Below are positions 1-64,000 of a DNA stretch of 64,000 bases, piece by piece. Origin of the DNA: Elusimicrobiales bacterium (GTDB taxonomy: Bacteria; Elusimicrobiota; Elusimicrobia; Elusimicrobiales; UBA9959); contig JBAYJD010000002.1 of NCBI GenBank assembly GCA_041665305.1, forward strand, positions 10,068 through 74,067, in the 5' to 3' direction. Both the position numbers and the translations under genes were made by a program. Positions within the stretch are counted from its first letter, which is position 1. Every line of letters starts with the position of its first letter. The notes under the pieces were generated by a model. The model was given only the letters and a program-made list of their open reading frames with translations, ran no database searches and was not told the DNA's origin.

Positions 1-125
1 GATCGTACAGCGTTATGGTGACTTCGGCGTTGTCCGACAGCGTGTAAGCTATAGCCGTCTTGCCTTCCGCCCCGCCTTTTCTCGGGTCGAACGGATTGGG
101 ATAGTTGCGCACATTCGTAAGCACG
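1..125 (-). other. Start of an NYPNPF-type C-terminal beta-sandwich (T9SS type-A CTD or FlgD Ig-like pattern), truncated by the window edge
   Basis: VLTNVRNYPNPFDPRKGGAEGKTAIAYTLSDNAEVTITLYD runs to coordinate 2; NYPNPF is encoded at 89-106. It matches the widely seen consensus NYPNPF(N/D)P...T.I.Y.L.....V.(L/I).(I/L)YD. Such domains are normally the last ~80-100 aa of a protein, so the stop is probably a few tens of codons left of the window. Confidence 0.7.
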
Positions 126-3100
126 GAGGCGAGCACTCCGGTGGTGACCGGCGCGTCAAGAACGGACCAGGCGGAGTAAACCCCGGCGTTGCTCACGGCG
201 CGAGCCCTGTAGAAGAAGAACATATCCTTGGGCCTGGCGGTTTCACCCGGGAACGCGGAGCTTCCGACAAAATACGAGGGGACCCTGGCCGGCACCAGGC
301 CCAGGGGGCGCCAGACGATATTGGCCTGCAGATCGGAGACCGCCCCGCCCCTTTCTTGGATCTCGTAGCCGGCCACGCCGGACACCTGCTGGCTGGAAGG
401 CGTCCATTTGACCTCGTAAGTGGTCTGGTCCGGAGCGCCGGCGGACACCTGCGCCTTCGGAACGCCGGGTATGGTAGGAGCGGCGGGATCGAACCTGAAG
501 ACGAACAGCGGCCTTACCGAGGAAACGACGACGGTTGAACCGGCGATCGTCACGAACCTGGCGCTGAAGATAGCGGCGTCGTCCGACACGGGTTCGCCGC
601 CCAGGGGGGAGCCCAGATGCGCTATGGGCGACGAGCCCCTCAGGCCGCGGCCCGAATCGGTATCGGAAGGCACTACTTCAAGCGTATTGGGCGAACCCGT
701 GACCCGGCGCAGGCGCATGATCTCGCTGCCCACATAGATCAGACCCGGCAGCTGGAGCTTGGAATCGTCGTCCACCGTAAGACTGACGTCGGTAACGCCT
801 ATATTTTTGGTCAGCCGCGCGCAGTTGGGCACCGGCAGCGCCAGGCCGCTTATGGAAGCCGCGGTCACCGGAGCGCCGGAAGCGAGCGGGGCAAAGGCGC
901 TGGCGCGCATCCCGGCCTTTATTCCCGACGCGGTCTCGCCTACGCGCCTCCAGGTGGCGCTAAGCGACGCGGGATCGTCATAAAACCGTCCGGCTGCGAC
1001 CTCATAGTAGCCCTGCGAGGCGGAAACCGTCGGCAGGGTCGCCTTAAGGAGCTGGCCGTTCCCCACCCAGGAGGACGGCACGAAACCCTGACCCGGGGCG
1101 GGCACGAATTTGGTGAGGTCGAGCGTATCGGTTCCAAGCAGCATCTGCCGTTCCCCGGACATATTTATCAGCACCTGGTCCGGGATCCCGTCCTGGTTCA
1201 GGTCCACTTCCAGGACCTTATTGCCGACCATGTCGCTGGACGGGACCGGGTCTCCGATAAGAGAGATCCTGTTAAGCCGCGGATCCGCCCCGGTGGAGAA
1301 GTTGTCGGGCACATGGTCCCCGTTGATATCCAGGAGAGGGGCGTCCTTGGGGCAGTTGGCCAGCCATTGCGAACCGTCCGCGCAGATCCAGCGGGTCTGG
1401 TCGGGCAGATAGTTATTGAGGGCGTCCTTGCAGATATTGTTGCGCACGAAAGCCGGATCTTTCCCGTTATTGCAGTTCACGGGGTCGATCTTGGCGAAGG
1501 CGGGATAGCCCACAGCGTTGTCGGGAATGCCGGGCCCGGCCAGCGTGATGATGACCGGCAGGGTATCGGTATCAACCGCCACCGCGGGAACGACCAGCGG
1601 CGCTATCTGCACAAGTCCCGAAGCGACGGGGGGTTGTTTTACGGAATCCGGGACCGCGCTCAGCTCCGCCAGGCCGCCGGGCCCTCTGATGTCGCCGTAA
1701 GAAGCCAGTTTAAGGCCCACGGAATGGCCTATCACCGCGTTCGAGGCGCCTATCGTGCCGAGGACGAAAATAATGCTCCTGGAAGCGTCCACGCGCAGCC
1801 GCGGCAGGCCGCCCGAAACTATGTTCACGGTGGCTATTCCCAGGCTGAAAGCTTCGCTTCCGCCGGCCTGATAAAGATGCGTCGCCTTGCCTATAAGAGT
1901 GTCGCCGGCGCTGTAAGTGCTGTTGCCGTCGGAATCCAGGTACAGGCTTACCGAGATCAGATCGCAGGCGGAAGCGTCCGCGCAGTAGCCGCTTCCCGTC
2001 TGGGTGAACCTGAAAGCGCCCAGGTCCACCGAGCCCTCGTTCGTCTGGATATCCAGCCGCATGAAGTTAACATCCCTGGAACCGGGCTCCACGGCCACCG
2101 GGGCGAGATTCACTCCGGAAACCTTAAGAATGGTCCCGCCTATCAGGACATTCACCGTCTCGAACGGCAGGGCCTGCGTCGTGGTTCCGTTGGGCAGCTG
2201 CGGGAACTGGCTTACCCCCACATTCACGCTGCCGTTGACCAGTTTCACGATCGGAGAATCCACCACTATGGCGTTCGGACCCGGGATCTTGACGCCCACG
2301 CCGTTGCCGATCATGGCCGAATCCCCTATATCATAGGCCAGGAAATAGGTCTGCTGGGAAGGGGACAAAAGCTGCGGGGTGCCCAATTCCAGCAGCCTGA
2401 CCCTGTTGTTGTCGTCCGTCTGCTCGAAGAAATCGACTTTTTCCACCACGGCGCCGGAGGAGACGGACATGGCGGGCGTGGCTGAAACCCCCAGGATGCC
2501 GCTTCTGGAGGTTACGCGCAGCGAGGCCGCGGAGGTGGAGATGGAGACATAATGCATCAGTTCGATATCGGAGAGCAGGATGTCGCCGCTGGACGGGAAG
2601 CCCGCGGTCGAGACGACCGCCAGGTCGAAAGGAACGACGGCGGCGCTTGAGACCGCGGCGGAGAGGACGGTCCTGGGACCGGAGATCGGCTGGTCGGACG
2701 CGTCCAGCACATCGTTGGAGTTCACATCGCGGAACACCCTGATGAACTTCACATCCCTGTTGCGGCCGTAAGGCTTCGTCACATCCGAGGAAGAGCCGGT
2801 CTTTTCCACCATCAGCCTGCGCCAGGTCGCCTGCGAAGTGTCGGTCTTCATATTAAAGCGCAGGACGGGGACCAGGGGCTGGCCCTGGCCCGCGGCGGGC
2901 GCGGAGGCGGAGACATCGTTGACGCCCATCGTGATCACGCTGGGGGCCTCCACTATGGTATCCAGCGTGGAATTGGCGGGGAACACCCCGGCCGCGGACA
3001 CGCCGTCGGGGATCGCGACATTGAAATAATCGGTGCCGCCCACCGACAGGCCTATGGTTTTTCCCACCTGGCCGAATTCCGAGACATCCACGGTGACATA

Positions 3101-49985: not shown

Positions 49986-50036
49986 AGGGCGTCTTTCAGT
50001 TTCATATTAACCGTTGCCGCCGGCCAAGCCGTACGA

Positions 50037-50798
50037 TCACTTTTTTTTCATATGCAGATCGATCCTTGCCTTTACAGCTTTATCCCCGCTGCGCTCCTTT
50101 ATGCCGCGCAATTTGTTTTCTCCATCCTCGGTCCGGCTCAGGGCGTCAAGTATTCCAAGTTTTGCGCCGGGATCCTTTTCAAGGTCGAAATCTTTTGACA
50201 GGGTTTCCGCATCGCCAAGCCTGGATAACGCCATGTAAGCGGCTATCCGCATATCCCTGTCAAGGTCGGTCCCGACTATATCCCGCAGACGCTCCAGCGC
50301 TTTCGGATCATTAAAAAACCCGAGTGAATTGACGGCCTGGATCCGTACGCCTTTATGTTTTTCGACCTTCAGCGCCGCGAGTATCCCGTTAAGCGCGCTC
50401 CGGCCGCCGGTTTTTCTCAACGCCGTTATGGCGCTTGTCCGGCCGCCGGGTTCCGGCTCGCTTATAGCGGCCCGGCTTAAAAACACCACCGCCTCATCGC
50501 TTTGTATCGCGCCCAGTTCCCGGTAAAGTCTTTCCCTGCCCGGAAGCTCTTTTTCCGCTTTGGCCGCTGAGATCTTCCCCTTGACGCCGTTATCAGACGG
50601 CGCCGCGCCAAGCGTCGTTACCGAAAAAATACCGCTGATAAAAACGATCACACAGCACACGGCCGGAAAGACCGTCCTTTCCTTCCTGGTAAAAACGGGC
50701 TCCTCAAAGCCTATATCAGCTTTAAAAAGTTCGCTAAATACGGTCCTTCTTGATTCAGCCATATAATTACCCGGCATAAGCGGATATAGCTCCGGCAC
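50037..50798 (-). CDS. Membrane-anchored HEAT-repeat (PBS-lyase HEAT-like) protein
   Basis: Track ORF of 253 aa with one TM segment (FPAVCCVIVFISGIFSVTTLG). HEAT-like repeats follow: AITALRKTGGRSALNGILAALKVEKHKGVRIQAVNSLGFFNDPKALERLRDIVGTDLDRDMRIAAYMALSRLGD. The listed start is GTG 50798; ATGs at 50777 and 50762 are alternatives. The stop is 140 nt upstream of ATG 49897. Confidence 0.75.
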   Translation of the reverse strand: MPELYPLMPGNYMAESRRTVFSELFKADIGFEEPVFTRKERTVFPAVCCVIVFISGIFSVTTLGAAPSDNGVKGKISAAKAEKELPGRERLYRELGAIQSDEAVVFLSRAAISEPEPGGRTSAITALRKTGGRSALNGILAALKVEKHKGVRIQAVNSLGFFNDPKALERLRDIVGTDLDRDMRIAAYMALSRLGDAETLSKDFDLEKDPGAKLGILDALSRTEDGENKLRGIKERSGDKAVKARIDLHMKKK

Positions 50799-51060
50799 AC
50801 ACTTAACGCCTAAAGCGCTATAAGGACGCTTGCGAACAAGCTAAACGCCAAGTATTTCACAAACGCAAATAAGCGCCGCCTCCGGAAACTCCTGTCATCC
50901 CCGGTGTTCGACGCCTTTGATAAATATCATAGTAATTATAATACAAAGATGATATTACAAAAAAGTTAATTTTTTGGGTAATTTCCGAAACCTCCCTCTT
51001 TTGCATAATTCCGGTCATAAATCCCTTCTCCCGGCCCGGCCTGGGAACGCGGCAGTGCGG

Positions 51061-51101
51061 CAGAAAAACGGCCTGACGGGACGGCGCGCGCAATTCAGGC
51101 C
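51061..51101 (-). terminator. Second intrinsic-terminator-like hairpin downstream of sRNA-like unit A
   Basis: The minus-strand RNA reads GGCCUGA-(18 nt)-UCAGGCC followed by GUUUUUCUG. The stem arms are 51095-51101 and 51070-76. Confidence 0.4.
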
Positions 51102-51102
51102 A

Positions 51103-51287
51103 ATAAAAAACCGCTTCAGCGTTCTTCGTTCCCATACAGGGCTACCGCTCCGAAGACAGCCAAAACGGCCGACCGCGACAAATCAGTTTTGATCTTCGGC
51201 AGCCTGACCCCCGCGTATATAGCGGGTCTTAGCTTTGCGCCGCCGGCTTTCGCCGGCTTTGCTATTATCGTGACATACGAACTTCGC
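51103..51287 (-). ncRNA. sRNA-like transcription unit A (~185 nt), family unknown
   Basis: It is bounded by a consensus promoter (51294-51321) and a long terminator hairpin with a T-run. The hairpin arms are 51151-51168 and 51111-51128, paired with G-U wobbles, and the A-run on plus is 51103-51110. Internal hairpins are gccggc-GAAA-gccggc and cccgc-tatatac-gcggg. There is no plausible ORF (only ATG-TCA-CGA-TAA). Confidence 0.45.
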
Positions 51288-51293
51288 GTTAAT

Positions 51294-51321
51294 ATTATAG
51301 CAGACAATCCGTATTTGTCAA
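51294..51321 (-). promoter_or_regulatory. Consensus sigma70-type promoter with extended -10 (unit A)
   Basis: Minus strand: TTGACA (51321-51316), a 16-nt spacer aatacggattgtcTGc, then TATAAT (51299-51294). The TGn extended -10 is present. Confidence 0.65.
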
Positions 51322-51342
51322 GGCCTATGCCCTTGACGAGTC

Positions 51343-51354
51343 AAACAAAATACC
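51343..51354. promoter_or_regulatory. TTGAC-N2-GTCAA palindrome upstream of promoter A (candidate operator)
   Basis: The sequence ttgacgagtcaa is a perfect 5+5 inverted repeat lying 21 nt upstream of the -35 box. A matching palindrome sits in the equivalent position upstream of promoter B. Confidence 0.4.
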
Positions 51355-51373
51355 ACAAGGCGGCCACGACCTA

Positions 51374-51418
51374 AAGGGCGGGGTGGTAAAAATTTTTGCG
51401 GCGAAAATTTTTAACCGC
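51374..51418. repeat. 45-bp A5T5-GCGGC-A5T5 element, copy 1
   Basis: aagggcggggtggtaaaaatttttgcggcgaaaatttttaaccgc matches 56819-56863 at 40 of 45 positions. It contains two self-complementary AAAAATTTTT blocks. Confidence 0.7.
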
Positions 51419-51634
51419 AAAAAAGGCCGTTTTGGCTTTCTTCGTTCTACCCTTAAGCAGGGTCGAGGCCCGAAGACAGCTAAAACGGCCAAATTACTTG
51501 TCCCGTTAGGGGCGCACCGGACACTGTCACCGCTTCAACTCCCACTCACCGTGACCACCCTACCGTTCCGACTCACTCTACCTGCCGCGCTCCTAACGGG
51601 ACACCCACTTCACCTGCTGCCACTGCTGCTTCCT
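51418..51634 (-). ncRNA. sRNA-like transcription unit B (~215 nt), family unknown
   Basis: A consensus promoter lies at 51641-51668. The 3' end is a 20-bp hairpin (51471-51490 pairing with 51425-51444, one mismatch) followed by UUUUUU (plus A-run 51418-51424). The body has a long-range helix, gtcccgttagg(a)gcgc ... gcgc(c)cctaacgggac, and is purine-rich. No ORF is present. Confidence 0.45.
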
Positions 51635-51640
51635 GAATAT

Positions 51641-51668
51641 ATTATAGCAGAAATACAAATATTGTCAA
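51641..51668 (-). promoter_or_regulatory. Consensus sigma70-type promoter with extended -10 (unit B)
   Basis: Minus strand: TTGACA (51668-51663), a 16-nt spacer atatttgtatttcTGc, then TATAAT (51646-51641). It begins 35 nt after the S41-like gene stop. Confidence 0.65.
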
Positions 51669-51678
51669 GGGTCCTTTG

Positions 51679-51692
51679 GTTGACATGTCAAC
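51679..51692. promoter_or_regulatory. GTTGAC-N2-GTCAAC palindrome upstream of promoter B (candidate operator)
   Basis: The sequence gttgacatgtcaac is a perfect 6+6 inverted repeat, 10 nt upstream of the -35 box. Confidence 0.4.
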
Positions 51693-51702
51693 AACCCCGA
51701 TC

Positions 51703-52842
51703 TCACTTCTTGGCGGCCGCAATAACCCCCATCGCTTTCTCATAGGCCGGATCGTCGAGCAGGGCCGTTTCGCCGGAGGCCGTCCAGGCGCGTTTAAACT
51801 CTTCCGCTTGGGCCGCCGACAGCCCGACCCTTAGATCAGGCTCCACTCCGAGATCCTCCAGCGCTTTCCCTGAGGGAGGGAACAACCTGGCTATGGTAAG
51901 CCTGATACCCTTCCCGCCCGGACCGAGGCTGAATGTTTTTTGCAGGGAAACGCCGCCCCGCGTGGTTTCGCCGATTATCTTCGCGCCGCGCAGTTCGCGC
52001 AGCGCCTGCGCGAACGCTTCCGCCGCCATGGCCGTGCCGGAATTGACCAGCACAAAGGGCTTAAGGGCGGCGAACCGCCCCCTGCCTGCGGCTTCAAAAA
52101 GCCTGGAGTAGCCTTTATGCCGGGATCTGAGCTCCAACACCGGGCCGGCCCCGGCGGCGAGGTCCTTTAAAAGCGCGGCGGCCTCGTCAGGCACTCCGCC
52201 GGAATCCCTCAGGTCGAAGACCACCCTTTTGGCGCCTAATCCGGACAGCGTATCCAGCCCCGCCGCGGCAATGGCGCCGGAGCCTTCGAAGAACATTCCT
52301 ATCCTGACAAAAGCAGTGGCGGTATCGGGCAGATAAAAGCCGAAGATCAAGGGGAAGGCGAACAATTCCTTTTTAAGTTTTACCGTTATCACACCGGCCC
52401 CGCCGGGAGCGCCTCGTTCTATCTTCAGACCGAACCCCGCGCCTGCGCGCAGGCCCGAAACCGCTTGGAGGTCGGCCTTACGGCCGTCAATTTCCAGCAC
52501 CCTGTCCCCATCCCGCAAACCGACCGCCGCGCCCGGAGAGCCCCTGAACACTTTGGCAAGGTAAAAGCCGCCGCGCCGTTCTTCCAAAAGCAGACCGGAG
52601 GAGAGGGCGCCTCCGCCGGGAAGCTCCTTAAATTTTTTCCCGGCCGCGACGATCTCCGCATGCCGGTCCAGGATCTTAAGGCCTTCCACGCCTTTGGAGA
52701 GCAGCAGTTCCCTGATCCGCCGGGGAGCGTGCGCCTCATAACTATGCTTTTCGAACACTTTAACGATGTCCGGCGCCATATCCTTATCCACGCAGGCCGC
52801 GCAGGCGGCAAGACAGACCAGCGGCAGGAAAATTTTATTCAT
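51703..52842 (-). CDS. S41 (C-terminal processing peptidase)-like lipoprotein with PDZ domain; catalytic dyad apparently substituted
   Basis: Track ORF of 379 aa. A lipoprotein-type signal is present (MNKIFLPLVCLAACAAC). A PDZ-like segment follows (GGFYLAKVFRGSPGAAVGLRDGDRVLEIDG). The S41 core motif DLR.N.GG reads DLRDSGGVP. The Ser motif G(S/T)ASASE reads GTAMAAE (52018-52038), and the Lys motif TFGKG reads TRGGV (51949-51963). Confidence 0.8.
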   Translation of the reverse strand: MNKIFLPLVCLAACAACVDKDMAPDIVKVFEKHSYEAHAPRRIRELLLSKGVEGLKILDRHAEIVAAGKKFKELPGGGALSSGLLLEERRGGFYLAKVFRGSPGAAVGLRDGDRVLEIDGRKADLQAVSGLRAGAGFGLKIERGAPGGAGVITVKLKKELFAFPLIFGFYLPDTATAFVRIGMFFEGSGAIAAAGLDTLSGLGAKRVVFDLRDSGGVPDEAAALLKDLAAGAGPVLELRSRHKGYSRLFEAAGRGRFAALKPFVLVNSGTAMAAEAFAQALRELRGAKIIGETTRGGVSLQKTFSLGPGGKGIRLTIARLFPPSGKALEDLGVEPDLRVGLSAAQAEEFKRAWTASGETALLDDPAYEKAMGVIAAAKK

Positions 52843-54188
52843 ATTCGATCGGCTCCGGATACGGGAAAATCGCCGGACGCGCCGCCGGCGTTATAACCGG
52901 GCGAGCAGGGATCGGTGGGCAGAAAAGGCCCGTACTCGGGGCACTGTTGAGCGTTGAGAGAATTGGGAGGCAGGCAGCAGCAGGGCGCCTTGGCCGTGCA
53001 GCCGCATTCCGCGCCGTAACCCTCGGTCGCGACATAGTCCTCCAGGCCGATATTCTGCAGGGTCTGCGCTGCGTCCGGATCGGCAAAACCTCCGCTCTCG
53101 GCCTTGTCCGCCGAGGCGCCGTCGCCGGCGCCCCCCGACCCCGTAAACGGTCCCAGGGGAGTGAACAGCGCCTTGGCCAGGCTCCGGCTTGCTTTTTTAT
53201 CCTGGTAGTCTTTATCCCCTTTCAGCGATTCTTTGGTGCCTTCCGCGTCCAGTTCCGGCTTGCCGACGGCGGAAACACCGAGCGTCCGGGCGTCGGAGGC
53301 GTTCAGGTCCTGCTCTCTCAGGAACTTGGGGATGGACCTGGGATCCACGCGGTCCAGTTTGGCCTTGACTTTCTCATCGTACACCAAAGAATAGGCGGCG
53401 TCGGAGTTGGCGTCGAAAGTTTTGGCTATCCAGCCCCTGGCCGCGTCCTGGGAGGCCAGGCGCGCGCCGTAGAGATTGGCTTTGAAGGCGCTTTTTAACG
53501 CCTCCATCACGGAAACCTTCGGCCCCCCGGCGGCGCCGCCCGGCGCGCCGCTTTTGGACTGCGCGAGCCGGGCCGGAGCATTGCCCTTCGTCTCTTCCGG
53601 TCTCAGCTCCGCCGTGCCGGAGGTCCGACCGCCGTTCAGCCGGCCGAGGGTTATCTCTTTGACCAGAAGTTTGCCGTCCGACCCGGACCTCGGGGCCTGG
53701 GAATGCGCTACAAAGCCGCCCGCGCCCGAAGACGGGTCCCCGGTTCCGGCCCCGCCCGCAGGACCGGCGGTTCCCGGGGCAGCCGCGCCGGACGCGCCGG
53801 CGGAACCGTCAAGAAGTTCTTTTTTAAGCGCCGGGTCGGCTTTCGCCAGTTCTTCTTCCGAAGCGAAAAATTCTCCTTCCTTTTCAGCTTTGGCCGCCGG
53901 TCCGGACCCAGGCGCGGCGCTATTGGCGCTCAGTTGGTTATAATTGCCGCCGCCCGCCAGTTTATCGGCGGCGTTTTTCATGGCGACCCAAGCCACGAAG
54001 CCTCCCACGGACAGGAAAACCAGCACGAGCGCGAGCCCCGTCCACTTATAGCTTCCGGGGCCCTTCGGGAGGAAAAAAGAAGCCCGGGAACCGCGGTCCT
54101 CATCGCTTTTATTTTCGCCGGTCATAGGTTGGTCCGCAAGGAAACGGCAGTCCTGCGGGTTCGGGGTCCTATCAGCCATGGGACCCAT
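52839..54188 (-). CDS. Single-pass membrane protein, Gly/Ala/Ser-rich, with a Cys-rich C-terminus (function unknown)
   Basis: Track ORF of 449 aa with TM segment WTGLALVLVFLSVGGFVAWVAM. The C-terminus is ECGCTAKAPCCCLPPNSLNAQQCPEYGPFLPTDPCSPG. Its stop overlaps the S41-like start by 4 nt (52839-52842), suggesting translational coupling. The true start may be ATG 54125. Confidence 0.6.
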   Translation of the reverse strand: MGPMADRTPNPQDCRFLADQPMTGENKSDEDRGSRASFFLPKGPGSYKWTGLALVLVFLSVGGFVAWVAMKNAADKLAGGGNYNQLSANSAAPGSGPAAKAEKEGEFFASEEELAKADPALKKELLDGSAGASGAAAPGTAGPAGGAGTGDPSSGAGGFVAHSQAPRSGSDGKLLVKEITLGRLNGGRTSGTAELRPEETKGNAPARLAQSKSGAPGGAAGGPKVSVMEALKSAFKANLYGARLASQDAARGWIAKTFDANSDAAYSLVYDEKVKAKLDRVDPRSIPKFLREQDLNASDARTLGVSAVGKPELDAEGTKESLKGDKDYQDKKASRSLAKALFTPLGPFTGSGGAGDGASADKAESGGFADPDAAQTLQNIGLEDYVATEGYGAECGCTAKAPCCCLPPNSLNAQQCPEYGPFLPTDPCSPGYNAGGASGDFPVSGADRI

Positions 54189-54491
54189 CGGGCCTGCGGT
54201 CGGCCCGGCGACTTCGCGCCGGTTGCCTGTTCATTGAATTGTGCTTCGCACCCCTCGGCCCGATCCGACCCATGGCTGCCACCCCTCCAGTTATACCCTG
54301 CCGCATATTTTAGTATTAACATGATCCCGCCCTTAATTACGATAAAGCACATTTAACCCGCCCGGTGGTTTCTGCAATCTTACAACAACAATAATGCTGT
54401 CGATACTGTCCCGCAGGCTTTTAAGGAAGCGGCAGTCCTGTAAGTGCGCGGGCATCGGGGGGACGGGGCTGCCTGGTCCGTTATCGTCCGC

Positions 54492-55115
54492 CTACTTCAA
54501 TCCCGGCAGCACGAACTGTATCGGCCTGTCCCGACTGGGCACATATTTAATGACTTCGAGCTGTTTTCCGCCGGCACAAAGATAGTCGTAGCCGTTGTTG
54601 CAGGCCGCGCCGTAAGGTTCGGCGCAAACCACCTGTTTGGGATACTTGCACAGCATCCCTATACCGGCGGGATCGGTCTCCACCGTCACCGTGACCACAT
54701 TCCAGACCTGCGTCCGCACGACCTCCAGCTTAAGCGTGCGGAGGTTCAGGAATTTCTTGACCGAGGGGGTGTTGAAACCGATATAATCTTTGACCTTCTC
54801 CTCTATATCCTTTCTAAGCCAGGGATCGTCCCAGCTTGCGGCGAAATCGGCGTTAAGATGCGATTCCAGCTGCCAGCGGCGGGCCGCGTAATAAGAGCCT
54901 ATCTCCATTTTCTGCACCAGCACCAGCAGTGCGAACATCTTGGCCGTGATAAAGACCACCAGCATGAAAAGCGGGAACAACAAAACGACTTCGGTCATCG
55001 CCTGCCCGCGCCTGCGGCGGGACCCGCCCGGAAGAGAGGAACGACGGGGAAAAATAAAATACAAAGCGGAAACGCACCGCCTCTTGATATTCTCAACAAC
55101 TCCACTGGCTCTCAT
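54492..55115 (-). CDS. TadE-like pseudopilin
   Basis: The N-terminus MRASGVVENIKRRCVSALYFIFPRRSSLPGGSRRRRGQAMTEVVLLFPLFMLVVFI fits the TadE pattern G-x-x-x-x-E-x-x-L-x-x-P plus a hydrophobic helix. I prefer ATG 55115, which is preceded by gggagaagagaggaataca, over the track's 55232 start, which overlaps the upstream gene. Confidence 0.6.
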   Translation of the reverse strand: MRASGVVENIKRRCVSALYFIFPRRSSLPGGSRRRRGQAMTEVVLLFPLFMLVVFITAKMFALLVLVQKMEIGSYYAARRWQLESHLNADFAASWDDPWLRKDIEEKVKDYIGFNTPSVKKFLNLRTLKLEVVRTQVWNVVTVTVETDPAGIGMLCKYPKQVVCAEPYGAACNNGYDYLCAGGKQLEVIKYVPSRDRPIQFVLPGLK

Positions 55116-55153
55116 TGTATTCCTCTCTTCTCCCGGCGCCCGCGGTTCCAGCC

Positions 55154-56368
55154 TCACGGATAGAGCCGGGTCTGATATTTCGGCGTGGGATCGGGCCACA
55201 CGCAATTGTTGCCGGAGGTCAATTGGGGGCACTGGCTGGCCACCAGGGCATGCACGCAGGGGCGCCCCGTTTCCTGGCAGGCCGCCTTGCCTTTGAAATC
55301 GACGCCGAAATAATTGGAAGGCGCGTTCCAGCCCTGGTAAACATGATAACCCGGGTTACCCACGGTCTTCAAAGCGCCGTCGCTGAAGGTGGCCAGCTGG
55401 AAAAGCCCCGGGGCGGGCATCTGCAGCGGAGGATTGGTCTTACCCAGAAAATACGGCGGCAGGCCCGACTGCGGCACCTTGGCGTGGAAAATTATTTTAT
55501 CCACATACCACATGAACATGCCTGCGCCGCGGGTGATCCTGTTGGCCCGGAAACCCCCGGGGCTCCTGACGCCGTCTTCGCCGCAGAGCGCCGGATTATC
55601 CACGCATTCCTGCGTATTGGCGTTCAGGTAATATGATTTCCTGAAAAAATTAAAATTCTCGGTAAGCCGCTCGAACACCGTCATCTGGGATTCCTCCACC
55701 GCGCCCAGCATGGTGTAAACCTGGGCGTAGAACTTATAGATGCCTATGGCCGGGTCCCAGAAAATATAGATCTTGATGCCCTGGTCGGCGTTTATCAGCA
55801 TCAGGGTATCCTCGGGAGCGGGGGGGTTTTTGTTCATCTGGGGCCGGACGGCCTCGTTAAAAGCGATCTCCCACTTGGATTTATTGTCCAGCGGGGTGGC
55901 GTCCTTGAACTCCTCGTCGTCCTTGTATTTCGGGATGTCGCCCGCGTCGTAAAGCATCTTATAGGTGCAGACCGTGCCCGTCTCGTCGGTCTTTTTCATG
56001 CAGTTTTCTTCCGTCCCCGTGGTACACCCCGCCGTGCATTCATAGGCTTCCTTGAAGATCCTGTACGGGAACGCGCCGTTGACATAAGCCGTGCGGTTAA
56101 GGATGTTGGTATAGTCTCCCATCTGGATGAAGGCCGCCGAATCCAGCGCGAACTGCTGGCGGATCTTTTCCCTGGAGATCTTAGTGGTCTCGAACAGGAG
56201 GTAGATAAAAAGCATGAGCGACGGGATGATAAGGATGGAAGGGATCAGGATCTGCCCCCGCCTGCGGCCGGGGCGGATCGGGTCGGGCGACGAACAGGCA
56301 AAAGAAAAGAACGAAGCGGCGGTATGCCGCCTCCAGGTCTTCTCAACGAGTCCCCTGTATCCCGCCAT
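55154..56368 (-). CDS. Large TadG/TadE-N-like pseudopilin-like protein, Cys-rich
   Basis: The N-terminus ..RPGRRRGQILIPSILIIPSLMLFIYLLFETTK resembles the Tad_N/TadG pattern (RRG plus a hydrophobic helix). About 340 aa of Cys-containing extracytoplasmic sequence follow. ATG 56368 is preceded by ggagagaagaat; the track's GTG 56386 is the alternative. Confidence 0.5.
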   Translation of the reverse strand: MAGYRGLVEKTWRRHTAASFFSFACSSPDPIRPGRRRGQILIPSILIIPSLMLFIYLLFETTKISREKIRQQFALDSAAFIQMGDYTNILNRTAYVNGAFPYRIFKEAYECTAGCTTGTEENCMKKTDETGTVCTYKMLYDAGDIPKYKDDEEFKDATPLDNKSKWEIAFNEAVRPQMNKNPPAPEDTLMLINADQGIKIYIFWDPAIGIYKFYAQVYTMLGAVEESQMTVFERLTENFNFFRKSYYLNANTQECVDNPALCGEDGVRSPGGFRANRITRGAGMFMWYVDKIIFHAKVPQSGLPPYFLGKTNPPLQMPAPGLFQLATFSDGALKTVGNPGYHVYQGWNAPSNYFGVDFKGKAACQETGRPCVHALVASQCPQLTSGNNCVWPDPTPKYQTRLYP

Positions 56369-56417
56369 ATTCTTCTCTCCGCCCACGCCCCGCGGGCCTG
56401 TCGCCGGCGCTCCGCCG

Positions 56418-56660
56418 TTACGGCGCCGCCGCCGGTTTACTGGAGCCTATCACCATCCCGACCAGGCTGAACATTCCGCCAAGAAGTTTTTTATGGAAAA
56501 GTATGCCGACTATCAGCGTAAGCCCCACCACCACGGACAGCATAAGAAGATACTCGACGGTGGTCTGCCCTTTGCGTCCCGGCCGGAAAGGACGCCCGGA
56601 AAGCCATAAGCCATAGGCCATAGGCTTTAAAAAATATAAAAAGCCGATCGCAGAATTCAT
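56418..56660 (-). CDS. flp: Flp-family (Tad/type IVc) prepilin
   Basis: 80 aa: MNSAIGFLYFLKPMAYGLWLSGRPFRPGRKG/QTTVEYLLMLSVVVGLTLIVGILF.. The G/xTxVEY processing motif followed by a hydrophobic helix is the Flp hallmark (compare G/ATAIEYGLI). An RBS, aggggatataaATG, is present. Confidence 0.7.
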   Translation of the reverse strand: MNSAIGFLYFLKPMAYGLWLSGRPFRPGRKGQTTVEYLLMLSVVVGLTLIVGILFHKKLLGGMFSLVGMVIGSSKPAAAP

Positions 56661-56676
56661 TTATATCCCCTGCTAT

Positions 56677-56705
56677 GTTATACCACCTAAACCGGACGCT
56701 TTCAA
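56677..56705 (-). promoter_or_regulatory. Candidate sigma70 promoter for the flp-like gene
   Basis: Minus strand: TTGAAA (56705-56700), a 17-nt spacer, then TATAAC (56682-56677), about 17 nt before the ATG region. Confidence 0.5.
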
Positions 56706-56752
56706 GGCCCCGGGAAAATATCCTACCTTTCCGATGTTGCCCAATTATTAAA

Positions 56753-56779
56753 ATAAAATGTCGTAAGACGACATTTTAT
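56753..56779. promoter_or_regulatory. Perfect 12-bp inverted repeat (ataaaatgtcgt-aag-acgacattttat) upstream of the flp promoter
   Basis: Seen directly in the sequence. It sits about 50 nt upstream of the -35 box, between the RR terminator and the flp promoter. It could be an operator or an RNA hairpin. Confidence 0.4.
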
Positions 56780-56792
56780 CGTCCGGCGCCGG

Positions 56793-56828
56793 AAAAAAGA
56801 AAAAACAACCCCGCCCTGAAGGGCGGGG
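56793..56828 (-). terminator. Rho-independent terminator after the NarL-type RR gene
   Basis: The minus-strand RNA reads CCCCGCCC-uuca-GGGCGGGG followed by UUGUUUUUUCUUUUUU. The stem arms are 56821-28 and 56809-16. Confidence 0.75.
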
Positions 56829-56863
56829 CAGTAAAAATTTTTGCGGCAAAAATTTTTAATCAC
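56819..56863. repeat. 45-bp A5T5-GCGGC-A5T5 element, copy 2
   Basis: aagggcggggcagtaaaaatttttgcggcaaaaatttttaatcac. It overlaps the RR stop codon (56860-62) and one arm of its terminator. Confidence 0.7.
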
Positions 56864-57531
56864 TGACCTTCGTGCGAGATAAGGCCCTTTTCCAGAGCCT
56901 TCACCACGGCTTCGGTCCTGTTGTTGACGGCGAGTTTCTGGAAAATGCTGTTGAGATGATTTTTAACGGTCTTTACGCTGCATTCGAGCGCGGTGGCGAT
57001 CTCCTTGTTGGAGTTGCCTTTGCCCAGCAGGGACATGACCCTGATCTCGGTGGAGGTCAGGGAATCGGGAGCGTTCTCGTAGCCGGGCTGCCCCATCTGC
57101 CTTAAACCCTGGATCAGCTTGCCCATGATGGGCTGGGGGATCATAACGCCGTCGGTGGTAAAGGTCTTGAGGGCGTGCACGAGCTCGGAAGCGGGCAGCA
57201 TTTTTGAAAGATAGCCGTTGGCCCCGGCCTGGATGGCGTCGGTCACATGCGCTTCGTCCTCGTAACTGGAGAGGATCAGGACATTAGTATTGGGGCATTC
57301 TTTTCTGATGATCCGGGTGGCTGAAACGCCGTCCATCTGGGGAAGCTTTATGTCCATAAGGATCACATCAGGCTTGAGTTTCCTGGCCATGGCGACGACT
57401 TCCGGGCCATTGGAGGCTTCGCCCACCACGACGATGCCTTTCTCATCTTCCAGCAGGTCCTTGATACCTTCCCTGAAAAGGGTCTGGTCGTCCGCGATCA
57501 AAACCGACACTGTTTTTTTGGGGGTGGCCAT
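56860..57531 (-). CDS. NarL/FixJ-family response regulator (REC + LuxR-type HTH)
   Basis: 223 aa. Receiver landmarks are VLIADDQ, VILMDIKLPQMDG and LILSSY. The C-terminal HTH is LTSTEIRVMSLLGKGNSNKEIATALECSVKTVKNHLNSIFQKL. An RBS, AGGAG, lies 6 nt before the ATG. Confidence 0.9.
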   Translation of the reverse strand: MATPKKTVSVLIADDQTLFREGIKDLLEDEKGIVVVGEASNGPEVVAMARKLKPDVILMDIKLPQMDGVSATRIIRKECPNTNVLILSSYEDEAHVTDAIQAGANGYLSKMLPASELVHALKTFTTDGVMIPQPIMGKLIQGLRQMGQPGYENAPDSLTSTEIRVMSLLGKGNSNKEIATALECSVKTVKNHLNSIFQKLAVNNRTEAVVKALEKGLISHEGQ

Positions 57532-57568
57532 TCTAAGCTCCTTATTTTATATCTCCGCGCTATCTAAG

Positions 57569-57597
57569 ATTATACCTGATTATACGACGCTTGTTAA
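57569..57597 (-). promoter_or_regulatory. Candidate sigma70 promoter for the NarL-type RR
   Basis: Minus strand: TTAACA (57597-57592), a 17-nt spacer, then TATAAT (57574-57569). A second TATAAT lies at 57584-57579. Confidence 0.55.
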
Positions 57598-57603
57598 AAT
57601 AAT

Positions 57604-58767
57604 TTACACCGGGCTTTCCGGTCCGGCCGAAGCGGCGCCGGGCGGCGGCTCCTTGGCGAACGGAATTGTGAATTTAAAAGAGGAGCCCTTGCCCGCGCCT
57701 TCAGACTCCACCCAGATCCGGCCTTCGTGGTTGTGGATGATCTCCTTTGAGATCGAAAGGCCGAGGCCCAGCCGCCCGTGCGGAGATTTGCCGCCGGCCG
57801 GCTGATAGAAGCTTTGGAAAAGCTTGGTCAGTTCCGCCGGATCTATGCCTTCGCCGGTATCTTTTACGGATACGCAGACCGAGTCTTCAAGGCGTTCCAC
57901 AAAAACCATTATACTGCCGCCTCTCGAGGTGTGCCGGATCGCGTTCTCAAGCAGGTTCATCAGGACCTGGCTGATCCTGCGCTTATCCGCGCACACCATT
58001 TTAAGCCCTTCCTTATTGATCCTTGCGTCTATGGAAATATTCTTCTGCTGGGCCCTGGCCTTCGGCCCCACGATGATCTCGTCCACCATTTTATCCATCT
58101 CAAAATAATTCTTTTCCATGCGCAGCTTGCCCTGCTCGATGGAAGCCCAGTCCACCAGGTCGCCTATAAGACGGGAGATCTGGGAGATGCTGGTATTGAT
58201 GAAGGTCATCTTCTTGCCCTGGTCGTCGTTGGGCGTGATGGTGGCGGCGAGCATCTCGAAACTGATCTGCAGGGTCATCAGGGCGTTAGAGAGATCGTGC
58301 GAGGCCATGGACATGAATTTGGATTTCATCCCGTTCAAACGGTCCAGTTCCTCGTTGTTATGCTTGAGCATGTCGATGAGGCGCTTGTTTTCCTGTTCCA
58401 GGAAAAGCTTCTCCTCGGCTTTCTTGATGGCGCGGCGCAGATAATTGAAATCCACCGGCTTTATCAGGAAATCGTAAACCGACTCCTGGATGGCTTTGAC
58501 CGCGGTGTCGAGCGAAGCGTGGGCGGTCATCATCAGGATCTGGCTGTCGGTATTGAGTTTGCGTATGTCCTTTATAACTTCGATGCCGGTCTTGTCGGTG
58601 AGGTTGAAGTCCATCAGGATGATATGGTAAAAATCGGAAACGACCCGTTTCATGGCTTCGGCGCCGGAACCGGCCTCGAATACCTTATAGCCTTCCATCT
58701 CCAGCAGGTCGCGCAGGGTTTCCCGCAGATGTGCGTCGTCGTCGACTATCAGGATCTTGCTTTCCAT
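57604..58767 (-). CDS. Soluble hybrid REC-HisKA-HATPase histidine kinase
   Basis: 387 aa. The N-terminal receiver shows ILIVDDDAHL, IILMDFNLTDKTG, MMTAH and LIKPV. The H-box is FMSMASHDLSNAL. The ATPase motifs are NLLENAIRHT, DTGEGI and GLGLSISKEII. Confidence 0.9.
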   Translation of the reverse strand: MESKILIVDDDAHLRETLRDLLEMEGYKVFEAGSGAEAMKRVVSDFYHIILMDFNLTDKTGIEVIKDIRKLNTDSQILMMTAHASLDTAVKAIQESVYDFLIKPVDFNYLRRAIKKAEEKLFLEQENKRLIDMLKHNNEELDRLNGMKSKFMSMASHDLSNALMTLQISFEMLAATITPNDDQGKKMTFINTSISQISRLIGDLVDWASIEQGKLRMEKNYFEMDKMVDEIIVGPKARAQQKNISIDARINKEGLKMVCADKRRISQVLMNLLENAIRHTSRGGSIMVFVERLEDSVCVSVKDTGEGIDPAELTKLFQSFYQPAGGKSPHGRLGLGLSISKEIIHNHEGRIWVESEGAGKGSSFKFTIPFAKEPPPGAASAGPESPV

Positions 58768-58869
58768 AGGGGCGGCTGCGGGTCGAAGGGTAATGAACGC
58801 CGGAACTTTTTAACTCCCTGGCTTCCGGCTTTACCGGACTCCCCGACTCCCGAATGCACCGTTACATTC

Positions 58870-60750
58870 TCACTTATTTTGGTTATTGGACACAAGTGGG
58901 AGGAACAGCTTAAAGCAGGTGCCTTGGCCCACCACGCTGGAAACTTCGACGCGCCCCTTATGCCGGTCGGTTATTTTTTTAACCACCGCAAGCCCCAGGC
59001 CGGTGCCCCGGGCTTTTGTCGTGAAGAAAGGCGCGAAGATCTTTTCCAGGGTCTCTTTCGGAATGCCGGGGCCGGCGTCCTCCACATCGATGCGGACCGC
59101 CTCGCCCGTCACCTCGGTGCGCACGGAGATCCTGCCCCGTTCGGGCATGACCTCGATGCCGTTCTTTATAAGGTTCCTGACGGCCTGCGTCATCTCGTCG
59201 GTATCGATGTTGACCGTGGGATTTTCCGGAGCCAATCTTTTTACCAGTTCGATATGCGGCGGGAACGGGAAGGACATAAGCAGGTCCTCCATGTACGCGT
59301 TCAGGTGCGTCAGCTTGGGATTAAGCTCGCGCGTGCGGGCGAAACCCAGGATCTCGTCGATAATGCCGTTGGCCTGGCGGATCTCAGATTCGATGATGGA
59401 GATGTGCTTGGCCACCTTCGGATCCAGGGGCGTGGCGGCGGCGTTCACTTTGGTCTTTATGAAATAGATGGAGTTGTTGATCACGGCCAGCGGATTCCTG
59501 ATCTCGTGGCCTACGACGGAGGCCATCTGGCCTATGGCGGCGAGCCGCTCTTTTTTGATAAGTTCGTCCTGTGCGGACTTAAGCTCCCTGGTGCGCGCTT
59601 CGACGCGGTTCTCAAGGCTGCGGTTGAGCTTTTCCAGCTCTTCCTTGGCCGACATGATCTCAGCGGTCTTCACCTTCAGGGATTCGCTCATCTGCATGAA
59701 GGTGTGGGCCAGTTCGCCTATTTCGTCGTTGGGCATGCTGAGGTCGGGCAGGTAATCGAAATCCCCCTCGCCCAGCTTGATGGCGGCTTCGCGCAGCGCC
59801 TGGATGGGCTGCGTTATGACCAGCGACACGGCGTAACCCAGGAAAAGGACGAACACGGTGACAAGAAGCATCATGCGCCAGGTGCGCTGAAGCATCTCGT
59901 TCGAGGCCTGGTAAGCCACGGAGACCGAGCGCTGGATGTAAACCACCCACCCCAGGTCGGAAACCTCCGCGAAAGCGCCCAGAACCTTCTCCCCGGTATC
60001 CAGGATTATCTCCCCCCCTCCGGTCTTGGCGTCGTTCTGGAGAAGGATCTTAAGGATATCCTCCGGCAGTTTGGCGTCCGGTTTGTAGATCTCCTTAAGA
60101 TTGGAGTGCGCTATCAGGAAACCGTTGGAATCTATCACCGCCGCCTGCGTATGGGTGGCCTCGGGGAAACCGGTCTTCAGGATGCTGGAAAGGCCGGTGA
60201 GGCTCATTTTGGCGATCAGCACCCCCATCCCCTGGTTCGTGGTGGAACTGACGATCTGCACGCCCATGGTTATGGCCGGATAGGACCCCATGTACTTCTC
60301 AAGCCCGCCTACGAACTCGCCGGTCTTCATAACCTTGCCGAACAGGACATCGTTGGAAAAATCGCGCAATTTCGTATCGCGCACGAAACGGCCCACGCGC
60401 ACGGTCTCGTGCCCGCCGGCGTTGATGACGGAAAGCTCAAGGAACGGGGCGTGCAGCTGCATGATATGGTTGATCAGGGCCTGCTGCTTGCCCGCGTTCA
60501 TGGAGGCGAAATCCTCCAGATGGGCCGCGTCGAAAAGGACATTGCGGAAGTTGGTGATGTAGCTGGAAACGGTGTCCGAGAAACCCACGGCCAGGGCCTC
60601 CTGGTCGCGGGAAATGGCCCTGTTAAGCGTCACCTGGCTCAGGGTCAGGAGGTAATACCCCACTATGCCGAGCGGCACGAGCGAAACGATAAGGAACACG
60701 AAAAGGAATTTGTAAAAAAGTCTTCCGCGTTTTTTGGGAGCTTCGGTCAT
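58870..60750 (-). CDS. Membrane sensor histidine kinase (TM, ~270-aa extracytoplasmic domain, TM, HAMP, HisKA, HATPase)
   Basis: 626 aa. The TM segments are FLFVFLIVSLVPLGIVGYYLL and MMLLVTVFVLFLGYAVSLVI. HAMP is ITQPIQALREAAIKLGEGDF...IGELAHTFMQM. The H-box is VGHEIRNPL. The ATPase motifs are NLIKNGIE, DAGPGIP and GTGLGLAVV. Confidence 0.9.
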   Translation of the reverse strand: MTEAPKKRGRLFYKFLFVFLIVSLVPLGIVGYYLLTLSQVTLNRAISRDQEALAVGFSDTVSSYITNFRNVLFDAAHLEDFASMNAGKQQALINHIMQLHAPFLELSVINAGGHETVRVGRFVRDTKLRDFSNDVLFGKVMKTGEFVGGLEKYMGSYPAITMGVQIVSSTTNQGMGVLIAKMSLTGLSSILKTGFPEATHTQAAVIDSNGFLIAHSNLKEIYKPDAKLPEDILKILLQNDAKTGGGEIILDTGEKVLGAFAEVSDLGWVVYIQRSVSVAYQASNEMLQRTWRMMLLVTVFVLFLGYAVSLVITQPIQALREAAIKLGEGDFDYLPDLSMPNDEIGELAHTFMQMSESLKVKTAEIMSAKEELEKLNRSLENRVEARTRELKSAQDELIKKERLAAIGQMASVVGHEIRNPLAVINNSIYFIKTKVNAAATPLDPKVAKHISIIESEIRQANGIIDEILGFARTRELNPKLTHLNAYMEDLLMSFPFPPHIELVKRLAPENPTVNIDTDEMTQAVRNLIKNGIEVMPERGRISVRTEVTGEAVRIDVEDAGPGIPKETLEKIFAPFFTTKARGTGLGLAVVKKITDRHKGRVEVSSVVGQGTCFKLFLPLVSNNQNK

Positions 60751-60818
60751 AAGATCAGGCGACGATTAAAGAATAAAGTGCGCGGCGCAAAGAGCGAACC
60801 CGGATAGAACGGGAGCCG

Positions 60819-60827
60819 CCCCCCCCC
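60819..60827. repeat. C9 (G9 on the coding strand) homopolymer in the intergenic region upstream of the sensor kinase
   Basis: Nine consecutive C residues at 60819-60827, about 70 nt upstream of the kinase ATG (60750). Confidence 0.9.
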
Positions 60828-60978
60828 GCCCGCGGATATATTGTAACAGGCCGGTGTTGCTGAAATATTGCGGGCGGCTGCGCGGCCGCCCGGCGGGCAC
60901 GACGACCGAGCCGTACCCTGTCTCACCGGCAGCCGCGCTGTTCGGCCTGTTACGCTTCGCTCTTTGCGTTTACACCCG

Positions 60979-62511: not shown

Positions 62512-62567
62512 TATTGCTCTCCGGTTTTTAGATGCCGCTTGGGAACGCCTAACGCGCTGAAGGGGCG

Positions 62568-62945
62568 TTATTTGCCTTTCCTCTTTAAAAGCTGGCGAAT
62601 GCGCAGGCACAGTTCCTGGATATCGAAAGGTTTGGTCAGATATTCATCCGCGCCGAGAGAAAAACCCTGCGTTTTTTCTTCTGCGGACAGGAAGCGGCCC
62701 GTCATCATGATAAGGATGAAGTCCTTGGAATGGCGTCTCAGCTCCTGACAGATCTGAAAACCGCTGGAATCCGGAAGCTGGATATCCATGATCACCACAT
62801 CGGGACCGTGTTTCTTGGCCGCATCGATGCCGGCTTTGGCGTTGCCGGCTTCGAGGCAGACAAAGCCTTCGAGGTCAAGGACCTCGGCGAGGCTTTCCCT
62901 CAGGTGCGCGTCGTCGTCGATTACCAGGATCTTTTGTGCGGCCAT
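62568..62945 (-). CDS. CheY-like single-domain response regulator
   Basis: 125 aa with canonical receiver residues: ILVIDDDAHL, VVIMDIQLPDSSG, IMMTG and LTKPF. Confidence 0.9.
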   Translation of the reverse strand: MAAQKILVIDDDAHLRESLAEVLDLEGFVCLEAGNAKAGIDAAKKHGPDVVIMDIQLPDSSGFQICQELRRHSKDFILIMMTGRFLSAEEKTQGFSLGADEYLTKPFDIQELCLRIRQLLKRKGK

Positions 62946-63048
62946 AATGTAAAACCTCCGTAATTCAGCAGGGTAAAGGGTCCGGGGTGAAGGGCCCGGG
63001 GAAGGAATTCCTTAACGACCTCCCCTTGAACCCCTCGCACCCGCGCCC

Positions 63049-63828: not shown

Positions 63829-63896
63829 ATTGTCTCCATGCGGCCGTTCAGCCGCGCCATCTGCCGTACGCGAAGAACACGCGTTCACGGACTAAA

Positions 63897-63933
63897 ACCG
63901 CTCCCTGGAAACCCATGGCCGGCGGAGCGGTTC
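63897..63933 (-). terminator. Terminator-like hairpin after the gene that ends at 63951
   Basis: The minus-strand RNA reads AACCGCUCC-(19 nt)-GGAGCGGUU followed by UUAG. The stem is 9 bp and the U-run is short. Confidence 0.4.
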
Positions 63934-63950
63934 TTTGCCCCGGCAAAAAA

Positions 63951-64000
63951 CTACTCCTGTTCGTTTATCTCTTCGATCTCGAAGGTAACGCCTTTCATGC
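63951..64000 (-). CDS. 3' end of an unidentified gene (start beyond the right edge)
   Basis: The minus-strand frame reads ..MKGVTFEIEEINEQE* with the stop at 63951-63953. This is too short to identify. Confidence 0.35.
   Translation of the reverse strand, partial: MKGVTFEIEEINEQE

Follow-up and report, generated by a model that had tools for sequence, protein, structure and literature searches.

A stretch of 64,000 nt from an Elusimicrobiales bacterium (contig JBAYJD010000002.1, assembly GCA_041665305.1; the window in what follows) carries on its minus strand nearly the whole of a gene for a giant protein of 16,733 aa. The protein ends in a C-terminal domain (CTD) related both to the type A sorting domains of type IX secretion systems (T9SS) and to the FlgD_ig domain. 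The chances are judged to be about even that this CTD serves to dock the protein on, or anchor it to, a dedicated outer-membrane barrel of the PorV/PorQ family. Recognition of the CTD by the barrel is suggested because the genes are paired in both directions, the CTD is conserved, secreted mini-proteins with the CTD as their only domain occur, and in Bacteroidota PorV binds type A CTDs, while type B cargo genes are linked to genes for their cognate PorP/SprF shuttle or anchor proteins (PMC12618676, PMC9143113). Judged from sequence, a known kind of arrangement, the T9SS-style pairing of CTD and barrel, is met here in a new form, on a giant protein that spans a phylum not belonging to the FCB (Fibrobacteres, Chlorobi and Bacteroidetes) superphylum. 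The first-pass annotation of the window had offered two explanations for export and anchoring, namely machinery encoded elsewhere or another role of the CTD in this lineage, for example surface attachment. The second is favoured here, since a PorV/PorQ-family barrel gene follows the giant gene in relatives.

In the proposed scheme, the giant protein would be exported via Sec, as its signal peptide suggests, and its last ~106 residues would fold into a seven-strand immunoglobulin (Ig)-like sandwich of the T9SS type A CTD/FlgD_ig kind. This domain would be no generic spacer; a dedicated barrel of the PorV/PorQ family would recognise it as the signal for targeting and anchoring. In many Elusimicrobiota, this barrel has a periplasmic extension of tetratricopeptide repeats (TPRs) and is encoded directly after the giant gene. 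It would then keep the giant protein on the cell surface, in the way that PorP/SprF-like barrels retain the adhesin SprB in Flavobacterium. The proposal covers surface anchoring and not the crossing of the outer membrane; a PorV-type barrel is a shuttle or anchor and no translocon.

The giant protein and its terminal domain

The giant gene is a single gene at positions 2 to 50005 (minus strand), with 16,668 of its 16,733 codons in the window. Its frame is free of stop codons for 16,682 codons, from position 50047 to 2, and the G+C content at the gene coordinates is 60%. Minus-strand translation of positions 1–1200 reproduces the residues given in the first-pass annotation (...VTTGVLASVLTNVRNYPNPFDPRKGGAEGKTAIAYTLSDNAEVTITLYD), the last codon being 2–4, and the in-window product closes with ...VRNYPNPFDPRKGGAEGKTAIAYTLSDNAEVTITLYD. 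The source contig of the window was recognised as ENA ERZ27249449 k141_148092 (102,354 bp) by a 100% identical protein at 55154–56215, and the public gene call on this contig gives a product of 16,733 aa starting from the ATG at 50005. Hence, 65 codons and the stop lie to the left of the window edge. The size of about 16.7 thousand residues proposed at first is thereby confirmed, and the stop falls within the ~100 codons expected beyond the edge, so that a continuation of many kb is ruled out.

Relatives were collected by a tail-alignment scan with one genome per GTDB species; 148 were found and the best 80 analysed. Nearly all of these 80 are Elusimicrobiota metagenome-assembled genomes (MAGs), the closest being GWA2_56_46 (78%), an Elusimicrobiaceae MAG (73%) and WAS_Bin_5 (71%). 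Nine homologues of the last 180 residues (58–80% identity) all run 66 residues past '...LYD' and end in ...RKIGVIH. In 77 of the 80 loci, the distance from the NYPNPF-type motif to the stop is 92–105 residues, mostly exactly 100, again with the ending ...RKIGVIH, and the figure of 65 missing residues therefore follows independently of the gene call. At most of the 80 loci the open reading frame (ORF) extends over the whole 10-kb upstream flank, and the C-terminal 3,500 residues of the window protein are colinear with the ORFs of relatives at 34–70% identity. An artefactual ORF was considered and is ruled out, because the frame is open for 50 kb and is colinear with the orthologues of other species.

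The common ending, the long ORFs and the colinear last 3,500 residues define, at the level of sequence, an orthologous family of giant surface proteins that spans the phylum Elusimicrobiota, with ~80 species and predicted lengths of 10,000–17,000 residues. Within the final 1,200 aa, the last 100 columns, i.e. the CTD, are the best conserved (majority fraction 0.71–0.73 as compared with 0.34–0.57 elsewhere; 61 species), and the CTD is single and exactly terminal throughout the family. Elusimicrobiota are reported to be enriched in proteins over 5,000–10,000 aa, which surveys have left uncharacterised (PMC11573180; bioRxiv 10.1101/2023.11.21.568195). The giant protein belongs among huge proteins of the kind known from Elusimicrobiota, Omnitrophota and other groups, and the barrel pairing gives a first functional lead for those of Elusimicrobiota. 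The many transmembrane regions, SecA-like domains and nearby type II secretion system-like genes of the Omnitrophota giants were not seen for this protein.

Ala, Thr, Ser, Gly and Val are abundant in the giant protein and Cys is scarce, and over its whole length there is no internal hydrophobic segment of the transmembrane type. Pfam searches with the entire protein gave a few scattered Ig-like matches only (Big_7, Big_13, Big_3_2) and no FlgD N-terminal domain anywhere, and a self-BLAST for internal repeats returned the diagonal only. A homologue search with the N-terminal 500 aa gave none at E ≤ 1e-3. No exact DNA copy of the left end of the window was present in the genome and metagenome contig collections searched.

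The Sec-type N-terminus proposed in the first-pass annotation is plausible by inspection if translation starts at the ATG at 49897. The probable signal peptide (MLPFSAKRLLLPFVAVLWFMGGRQCFA followed by DYS) would then be encoded at 49817–49897 (minus strand), with typical n-, h- and c-regions, and AAAGG is found 5–9 nt upstream of this ATG. The public gene call at ATG 50005 begins 36 codons earlier, and the true start may be the downstream ATG at 49897. Comparable N-terminal signal peptides were recognised, likewise by inspection, in the giant orthologues of L168 and L087; the L087 gene call apparently begins too late, past the signal peptide.

The first 41 residues of the CTD, which is ~106 aa long, are encoded at 2–124 (minus strand; VLTNVRNYPNPFDPRKGG...VTITLYD), and the other 65 residues and the stop fall to the left of the window. 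The in-window part takes in the first strand, with NYPNPF, as well as the opening YD of the conserved YDLLGY loop. A hidden Markov model (HMM) built from 72 orthologous CTDs matches these 41 residues with E = 5e-13, so that the match is not due to chance. Neither this fragment alone nor the last 400 aa matched a Pfam or NCBIfam model, even at E ≤ 1–10. The CTD was completed with the missing 65–66 residues from the tail of a homologue, and in this form passes two models narrowly: PF13860 FlgD_ig with 30.4 bits (cutoff 27) and TIGR04183, the T9SS type A sorting model, with 26.7 bits (cutoff 23; model positions 2–71 of 72). The homologues' own CTDs score 28–29 bits on PF13860 and 22.4–26.0 bits on TIGR04183; isolated complete CTDs give 28.2–30.4 bits on PF13860 against the gathering threshold of 27, and FlgD_ig is matched by 9 of 9 complete homologue CTDs, with a best E of 4.6e-9. 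In NCBIfam, the completed CTD aligns best with the CTDs of a T9SS-dependent M6-like protease, PorU and PorZ. Of the three models named for checking in the first-pass annotation, PF13860 and TIGR04183 narrowly support a CTD/FlgD-Ig assignment on the completed domain, and PF18962 does not.

The window copy being 65 residues short, the fold was examined on the CTD of the homologue P0008. The predicted structure (pLDDT 71.9) has seven strands. A Foldseek search of the PDB with this model returned FlgD 3OSV (E = 6e-4), PorZ 5M11 and PorU 6ZA2, with the best TM-score, 0.58, for PorU 6ZA2 at a root-mean-square deviation of 3.7 Å. A search of the PDB with the CTD sequence profile gave FlgD at E = 0.005 and the PorU CTD at E = 0.1. 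According to this model, the CTD is a terminal seven-strand Ig-like beta-sandwich of the T9SS type A CTD/FlgD_ig kind. The initial description of such a tail at the end of the protein is borne out by the HMMs on the completed domain, the homologue model and the position of the stop. The fold and family call is correct but alone cannot separate an FlgD-type Ig module from a T9SS tag.

At E ≤ 1e-3, the CTD profile matches 11,580 representative clusters. Where a copy of the domain family is single and terminal, its ending is RKIGVIH, GRGKIAVLK or RKILVIK. Proteins P0130–P0134 and about 60 others, of 1,000–4,000 aa, have 5–15 tandem internal copies of the FlgD_ig type, the units starting with (S/D)PNPF. 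JGI gives the CTD fragment P0008 the misleading name 'flagellar hook assembly protein FlgD'.

Directly before the CTD, positions 125–478 (minus strand) encode a beta-rich module with a fibronectin type III (FN3)-like sequence pattern (YEVKW, GYEIQER, YRARAVSNAGVYSAWS) and a linker. The module is kept in homologues, and the linker contains an invariant TG. This stretch had initially been called a clear FN3 domain, of which the sequence pattern is what remains. There is no fn3 match at E ≤ 1 in the window protein, and PF00041 is matched in one of 10 homologues with E = 0.083. The PDB profile search gave no FN3 structure among its matches, and an hhalign comparison with a human fibronectin FN3 domain was not significant. 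A model of the 304-aa tail (pLDDT 43.6) is unusable outside the CTD, with a pLDDT of about 30 in the FN3-like stretch.

Gene pairing with PorV/PorQ-family barrels

Sufficient sequence downstream of the giant gene was available at 72 species loci. In 33 of them, a gene for a protein with a signal peptide follows directly, and in 30 the gap is about 60–460 nt. The N-terminal ~300 residues of this protein correspond to the PorV/PorQ family model NF033709 end to end, and its C-terminal ~200 residues to TPRs. Five such downstream barrel proteins of relatives score 99–116 bits on NF033709 (cutoff 90; model positions 5–326), and a barrel-only paralogue scores 198 bits. The sole significant sequence found with the barrel profile in the PDB is PorV of F. 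johnsoniae (6H3I_F, E = 2.8e-8), the T9SS shuttle that binds CTDs.

The association was also examined in reverse, by a metagenome scan that started from the barrel alignment alone. It gave 80 loci, of which the 66 with at least 700 nt of upstream sequence were evaluated. An ORF recognised by the CTD HMM ends upstream on the same strand in 52 of these 66 PorV-like loci, within 600 nt in 48, and the median gap is 190 nt; CTD matches otherwise occur about once per 10 kb. The pairing was found for 16 of 27 TPR-fused barrels and for 36 of 39 barrel-only paralogues. The cargo of the CTD/barrel pairs varies from CTD-only mini-proteins of 132–152 aa, through a beta-helix protein of 613 aa that has a choice-of-anchor Q domain and scores 28 bits on TIGR04183, to fragments of giant proteins. 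A second, paralogous CTD/barrel pair is present in L079. In L085, the genes for the HEAT-repeat protein, the giant protein, the PorV-TPR protein and a FliG-like protein are jointly missing, and synteny is otherwise kept.

The CTD-only mini-proteins consist of a signal peptide, about 10 residues and a CTD of ~100 aa that ends in RKIGV[IL]H, and their genes lie immediately upstream of the PorV-TPR gene. They were found at L071:11354–11809, L105:279–689, L106:5461–5856, L107:5454–5858, L108:524–940 and L134:502–957; that of L071 is placed between the giant gene and the barrel gene.

The metagenome loci with barrel-only genes (L144:6211–9225, L157:10280–10957, L154:4056–5894 and L152:5899–7032) have cargo of ordinary size, for example a beta-helix with choice-of-anchor Q. 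In nine barrel-only loci, the next gene after the barrel encodes a ~1,000-aa TPR protein of the CpoB/YbgF type, and in nine a TolQ/ExbB-like gene lies further on. With 151 bits against the TPR part of PorW/SprE, the CpoB/YbgF-type protein stays under the cutoff of that model.

As compared with docking to a barrel, it is unlikely that the CTD is a structural end-cap, i.e. a FlgD-type Ig-like building block or adhesive tip without a sorting role, whose likeness to T9SS domains would reflect a shared fold. FlgD, the flagellar hook cap, is the top match of the CTD in fold and in PDB sequence, PF13860 is its best Pfam match and scores above the Pfam model for T9SS, JGI labels one CTD fragment 'FlgD', and many of the 11,580 clusters in the domain profile have 5–15 tandem copies that are not terminal. 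In the giant family, however, the domain occurs once, always exactly at the end, and is the most conserved part of the tail; secreted mini-proteins made of the CTD make little sense as spacers; and the strong two-way pairing with PorV-family barrel genes is not accounted for. The giant protein further differs from FlgD in its 16,733 aa, in lacking the FlgD N-terminal domain, and in its probable Sec-type N-terminus, whereas FlgD leaves the cell by flagellar type III export with no Sec signal.

Several observations weigh against the CTD being a docking signal for a barrel. The window itself has no PorV-like gene within its 64 kb; ~9.9 kb of the source contig beyond the giant stop lie outside it. 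In 39 of the 72 species loci, there is no PorV-like gene within about 10 kb. The two closest relatives, L007 (70% identity across 3,500 aa) and L002 (80% across the tail), have other genes downstream. In L002 it is fabF. In L007 (GWA2_56_46), genes for a 137-aa protein and a 484-aa protein with Cys-rich repeats (CCVPNPATCSAPAPACGTTTTG…) are followed on the opposite strand by two pseudopilin-like genes (…FTLIELL…, …FTLVEVV…; L007:10833–14099). The PorV-TPR gene also adjoins a FliG-like/MotAB gene cluster and may belong there instead. PorV/PorQ-family barrels, which are FadL-like, also match UPF0164 and Toluene_X weakly, so that membership of the family is no proof of CTD binding, and the metagenome loci of the reverse comparison were counted irrespective of taxonomy. 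The HMM scores of the CTD are marginal, and those on PF18962 are below threshold for the completed and homologue CTDs (13.6–19.6 bits, threshold 27). Finally, many proteins have internal tandem copies of the domain, and the fold alone therefore does not imply sorting.

In a subclade of about 18 species (L010:10721–11785 and about 17 other loci), the place of the barrel gene is taken by a gene for a secreted HEAT-repeat protein, which lies directly downstream of the giant gene and is followed by one for a cyclase of the CHASE2 type.

C-terminal sorting of the T9SS type counts as a hallmark of Bacteroidota and related FCB phyla, and the same kind of tag ends the giant proteins of Elusimicrobiota. 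The tags are tightly paired, in both directions, with barrels that are currently annotated as 'hypothetical' or 'TPR repeat protein'. Should this pairing mean binding, it would offer a way to test how the largest proteins of bacteria are retained on the cell surface, and would suggest that CTD-barrel recognition is older or more modular than the full T9SS. The labels 'FlgD' and 'T9SS sorting domain' would then need to be read in context outside Bacteroidota. The public names of the PorV-TPR proteins P0280, P0294 and P0296 are 'hypothetical protein' or 'TPR repeat protein'.

Relation to known secretion and motor systems

The giant protein shares several features with T9SS type A cargo of Bacteroidota such as RgpB, and with the uncleaved CTDs of PorU and PorZ. 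These include the probable Sec signal, a terminal sandwich modelled with seven strands and similar in fold to the PorU and PorZ CTDs, the YPNP first strand, the YD..G loop and the K-I-x-V-I-x last strand, together with the narrow pass of the completed domain on TIGR04183 and the PorV-family barrel encoded in relatives. In contrast, the host phylum, Elusimicrobiota, lies outside the FCB group (PMC11285876), the CTD of about 106 aa is longer than typical cleaved CTDs and does not pass PF18962, and the barrels are paired with individual cargo genes and often fused to TPRs, whereas one PorV serves all type A cargo in Bacteroidota.

Another reading is a canonical T9SS encoded elsewhere in the genome (SprA/Sov, PorK/L/M/N, PorU, PorV, PorZ), with translocation, cleavage and lipid anchoring of the giant protein as an ordinary type A substrate. 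In its favour, the completed CTD scores above the TIGR04183 cutoff and aligns best with the CTDs of an M6-like protease, PorU and PorZ, relatives have PorV/PorQ-family genes, and the YD..G loop and the K-I-x-V-I-x strand at the C-terminus are similar to the two CTD motifs shown to be important in P. gingivalis (PMC11285876). Such a system is nevertheless considered improbable. T9SS genes are stated at review level to be absent outside the FCB superphylum (2024; PMC11285876), and full-text literature searches gave no paper that ties Elusimicrobia to T9SS or PorV. No core gene, including SprA, PorU and PorKLMN, was found among the neighbours scanned in the window and at several loci, no genome-wide scan having been made, and the gene-by-gene pairing of barrel and cargo is not the arrangement of type A cargo in Bacteroidota.

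The gene order resembles that of the type B system of SprB (669 kDa) and SprF in F. johnsoniae, in which the dedicated barrel is required for secretion and anchoring of the cargo (PMC9143113, PMC12618676). In both cases, a barrel gene comes immediately after the gene for a huge repetitive surface protein, and, as in type B CTD/PorP-like systems, there are several cargo/barrel pairs per lineage. The CTD of the giant protein is, however, of the type A/FlgD_ig kind, its putative barrel is a PorV/PorQ-family member, and that the cargo needs the barrel is here presumed from gene order.

In relatives, the genes that follow the PorV-TPR gene have a fixed order, namely a FliG-like membrane protein, a coiled-coil protein (750–1,160 aa), FlbD, MotA and MotB. 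It was seen at L172:11750–18036, L079:12535–15784, L001:10587–14743, and at 7.5–12.7 kb in L106 and L107. The FliG-like protein has 580–650 aa, of which residues ~264–477 correspond to the FliG middle and C-terminal domains (PDB 1LKV, E = 2e-36); on TIGR00207 it scores 148 bits, below the cutoff of 227. Its N-terminal part has a signal or transmembrane segment and a FliF-like periplasmic stretch, and TPRs are often present.

It is conceivable, though a long shot, that the CTD and PorV-type barrel form a sorting module without a Bacteroidota-style T9SS that is functionally tied to these FliG-like, coiled-coil, FlbD, MotA and MotB genes. In that case a proton-driven motor of stator and FliG-like protein might export, tension or move giant proteins docked to the barrel, and would be an independent counterpart of the SprB/GldLM gliding and secretion apparatus.

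The upstream gene block

The giant gene is preceded by a conserved block on the same strand. Directly upstream, 31 nt from ATG 50005, is a gene for a HEAT-repeat protein (50037–50762, minus strand; PF13646 HEAT_2, E = 8e-15), which is counted among the secreted ones. A role of such HEAT-repeat neighbours as chaperones, for example in the periplasm, was considered, with no evidence either way in the data at hand. Next in the block are a peptidase of the S41 (C-terminal processing) type with a PDZ domain (51703–52842, minus strand; PF03572, E = 2e-24), which is syntenic in L085–L087 and L168–L171, and a 428-aa protein (52839–54125, minus strand) that has no family match, low-complexity Gly/Ala/Pro stretches and a Cys-rich C-terminus (…CGCTAKAPCCCLPPNSLNAQQCPEYGPFLPTDPCSPG…).

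Further on are genes for a 168-aa protein (54492–54998, minus strand) and a 353-aa protein (55154–56215, minus strand; 100% identical to the entry P0010), both with a single hydrophobic segment in the N-terminal part, preceded by an RRRGQ motif (RRRRGQ in the 168-aa protein). They are 'TadE-like' and 'TadE/TadG-like', respectively, by this motif alone. The 168-aa protein has no Pfam match at E ≤ 5 beyond noise. The 353-aa protein, which has no Pfam match, is a member of a family with at least 487 proteins, in which every named match is from Elusimicrobia/Elusimicrobiota; its distant member P0110 gives 14 bits on PF13400 Tad (cutoff 22.3). A 67-aa protein (56418–56621, minus strand; …GQTTVEYLLMLSVVVGL…; GQTTVEYLL) is a candidate Flp-like prepilin and falls just under the cutoff of the PF04021 Class_III signal model (23.2 bits, cutoff 23.7; E = 7e-5). 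Three response regulators, two histidine kinases and a DsbA-like protein are encoded further upstream. The first-pass description of the neighbours as Flp/TadE/TadG-like thus comes down to one near-threshold PF04021 match and N-terminal motifs, with no TadE or TadG HMM support; its statement that no neighbouring gene is a T9SS component holds, as the scans of the window found none.

The block is syntenic in eight contigs, the window contig and seven others. The giant gene comes directly after the HEAT-repeat gene in three of them, namely the window contig, L087 (12,671 aa) and L168; this is not the case in L085, L086, L169 and L170. In the L171/L172 contig, a giant orthologue of 11,815 aa is encoded about 18 kb further on the same strand. 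The block is kept whether or not the giant gene adjoins it, and is therefore a conserved neighbourhood and not a demonstrated secretion machinery.

These genes could be taken to suggest a Tad or type IV filament route, in which machinery associated with the Flp-like and TadE-like proteins exports the giant protein or fixes it to a pilus-like fibre. The 67-aa gene and the two TadE-like N-termini lie 4.4–6.6 kb upstream on the same strand, and the order of block, HEAT-repeat gene and giant gene recurs as described. This route is, however, regarded as very improbable. No Tad ATPase, secretin, TadB/C platform or prepilin peptidase was found in the window by Pfam searches of the sizeable minus-strand ORFs at 50–64 kb, the block is unchanged where the giant gene is not adjacent, and the CTD would be left unexplained. 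Tad systems are not known to export Sec-dependent proteins of several megadaltons.

In full, the block (window 50037–64000, minus strand; L084–L087 and L168–L171) has about 15 genes. It starts with a TPR protein and proteins of 371 and 99 aa, continues with an OmpR-type regulator, a receiver protein, the DsbA-like protein of 480–510 aa, a dCache kinase, a hybrid kinase and a LuxR-type regulator, and ends with the Flp-like protein, the two TadE-like proteins, in some cases an FtsH-like protein, the protein of about 430 aa, the S41 peptidase and the HEAT-repeat protein. The insertions seen in some genomes are the FtsH-like AAA/M41 gene, or glycosyltransferase and radical-SAM genes past the HEAT-repeat gene.

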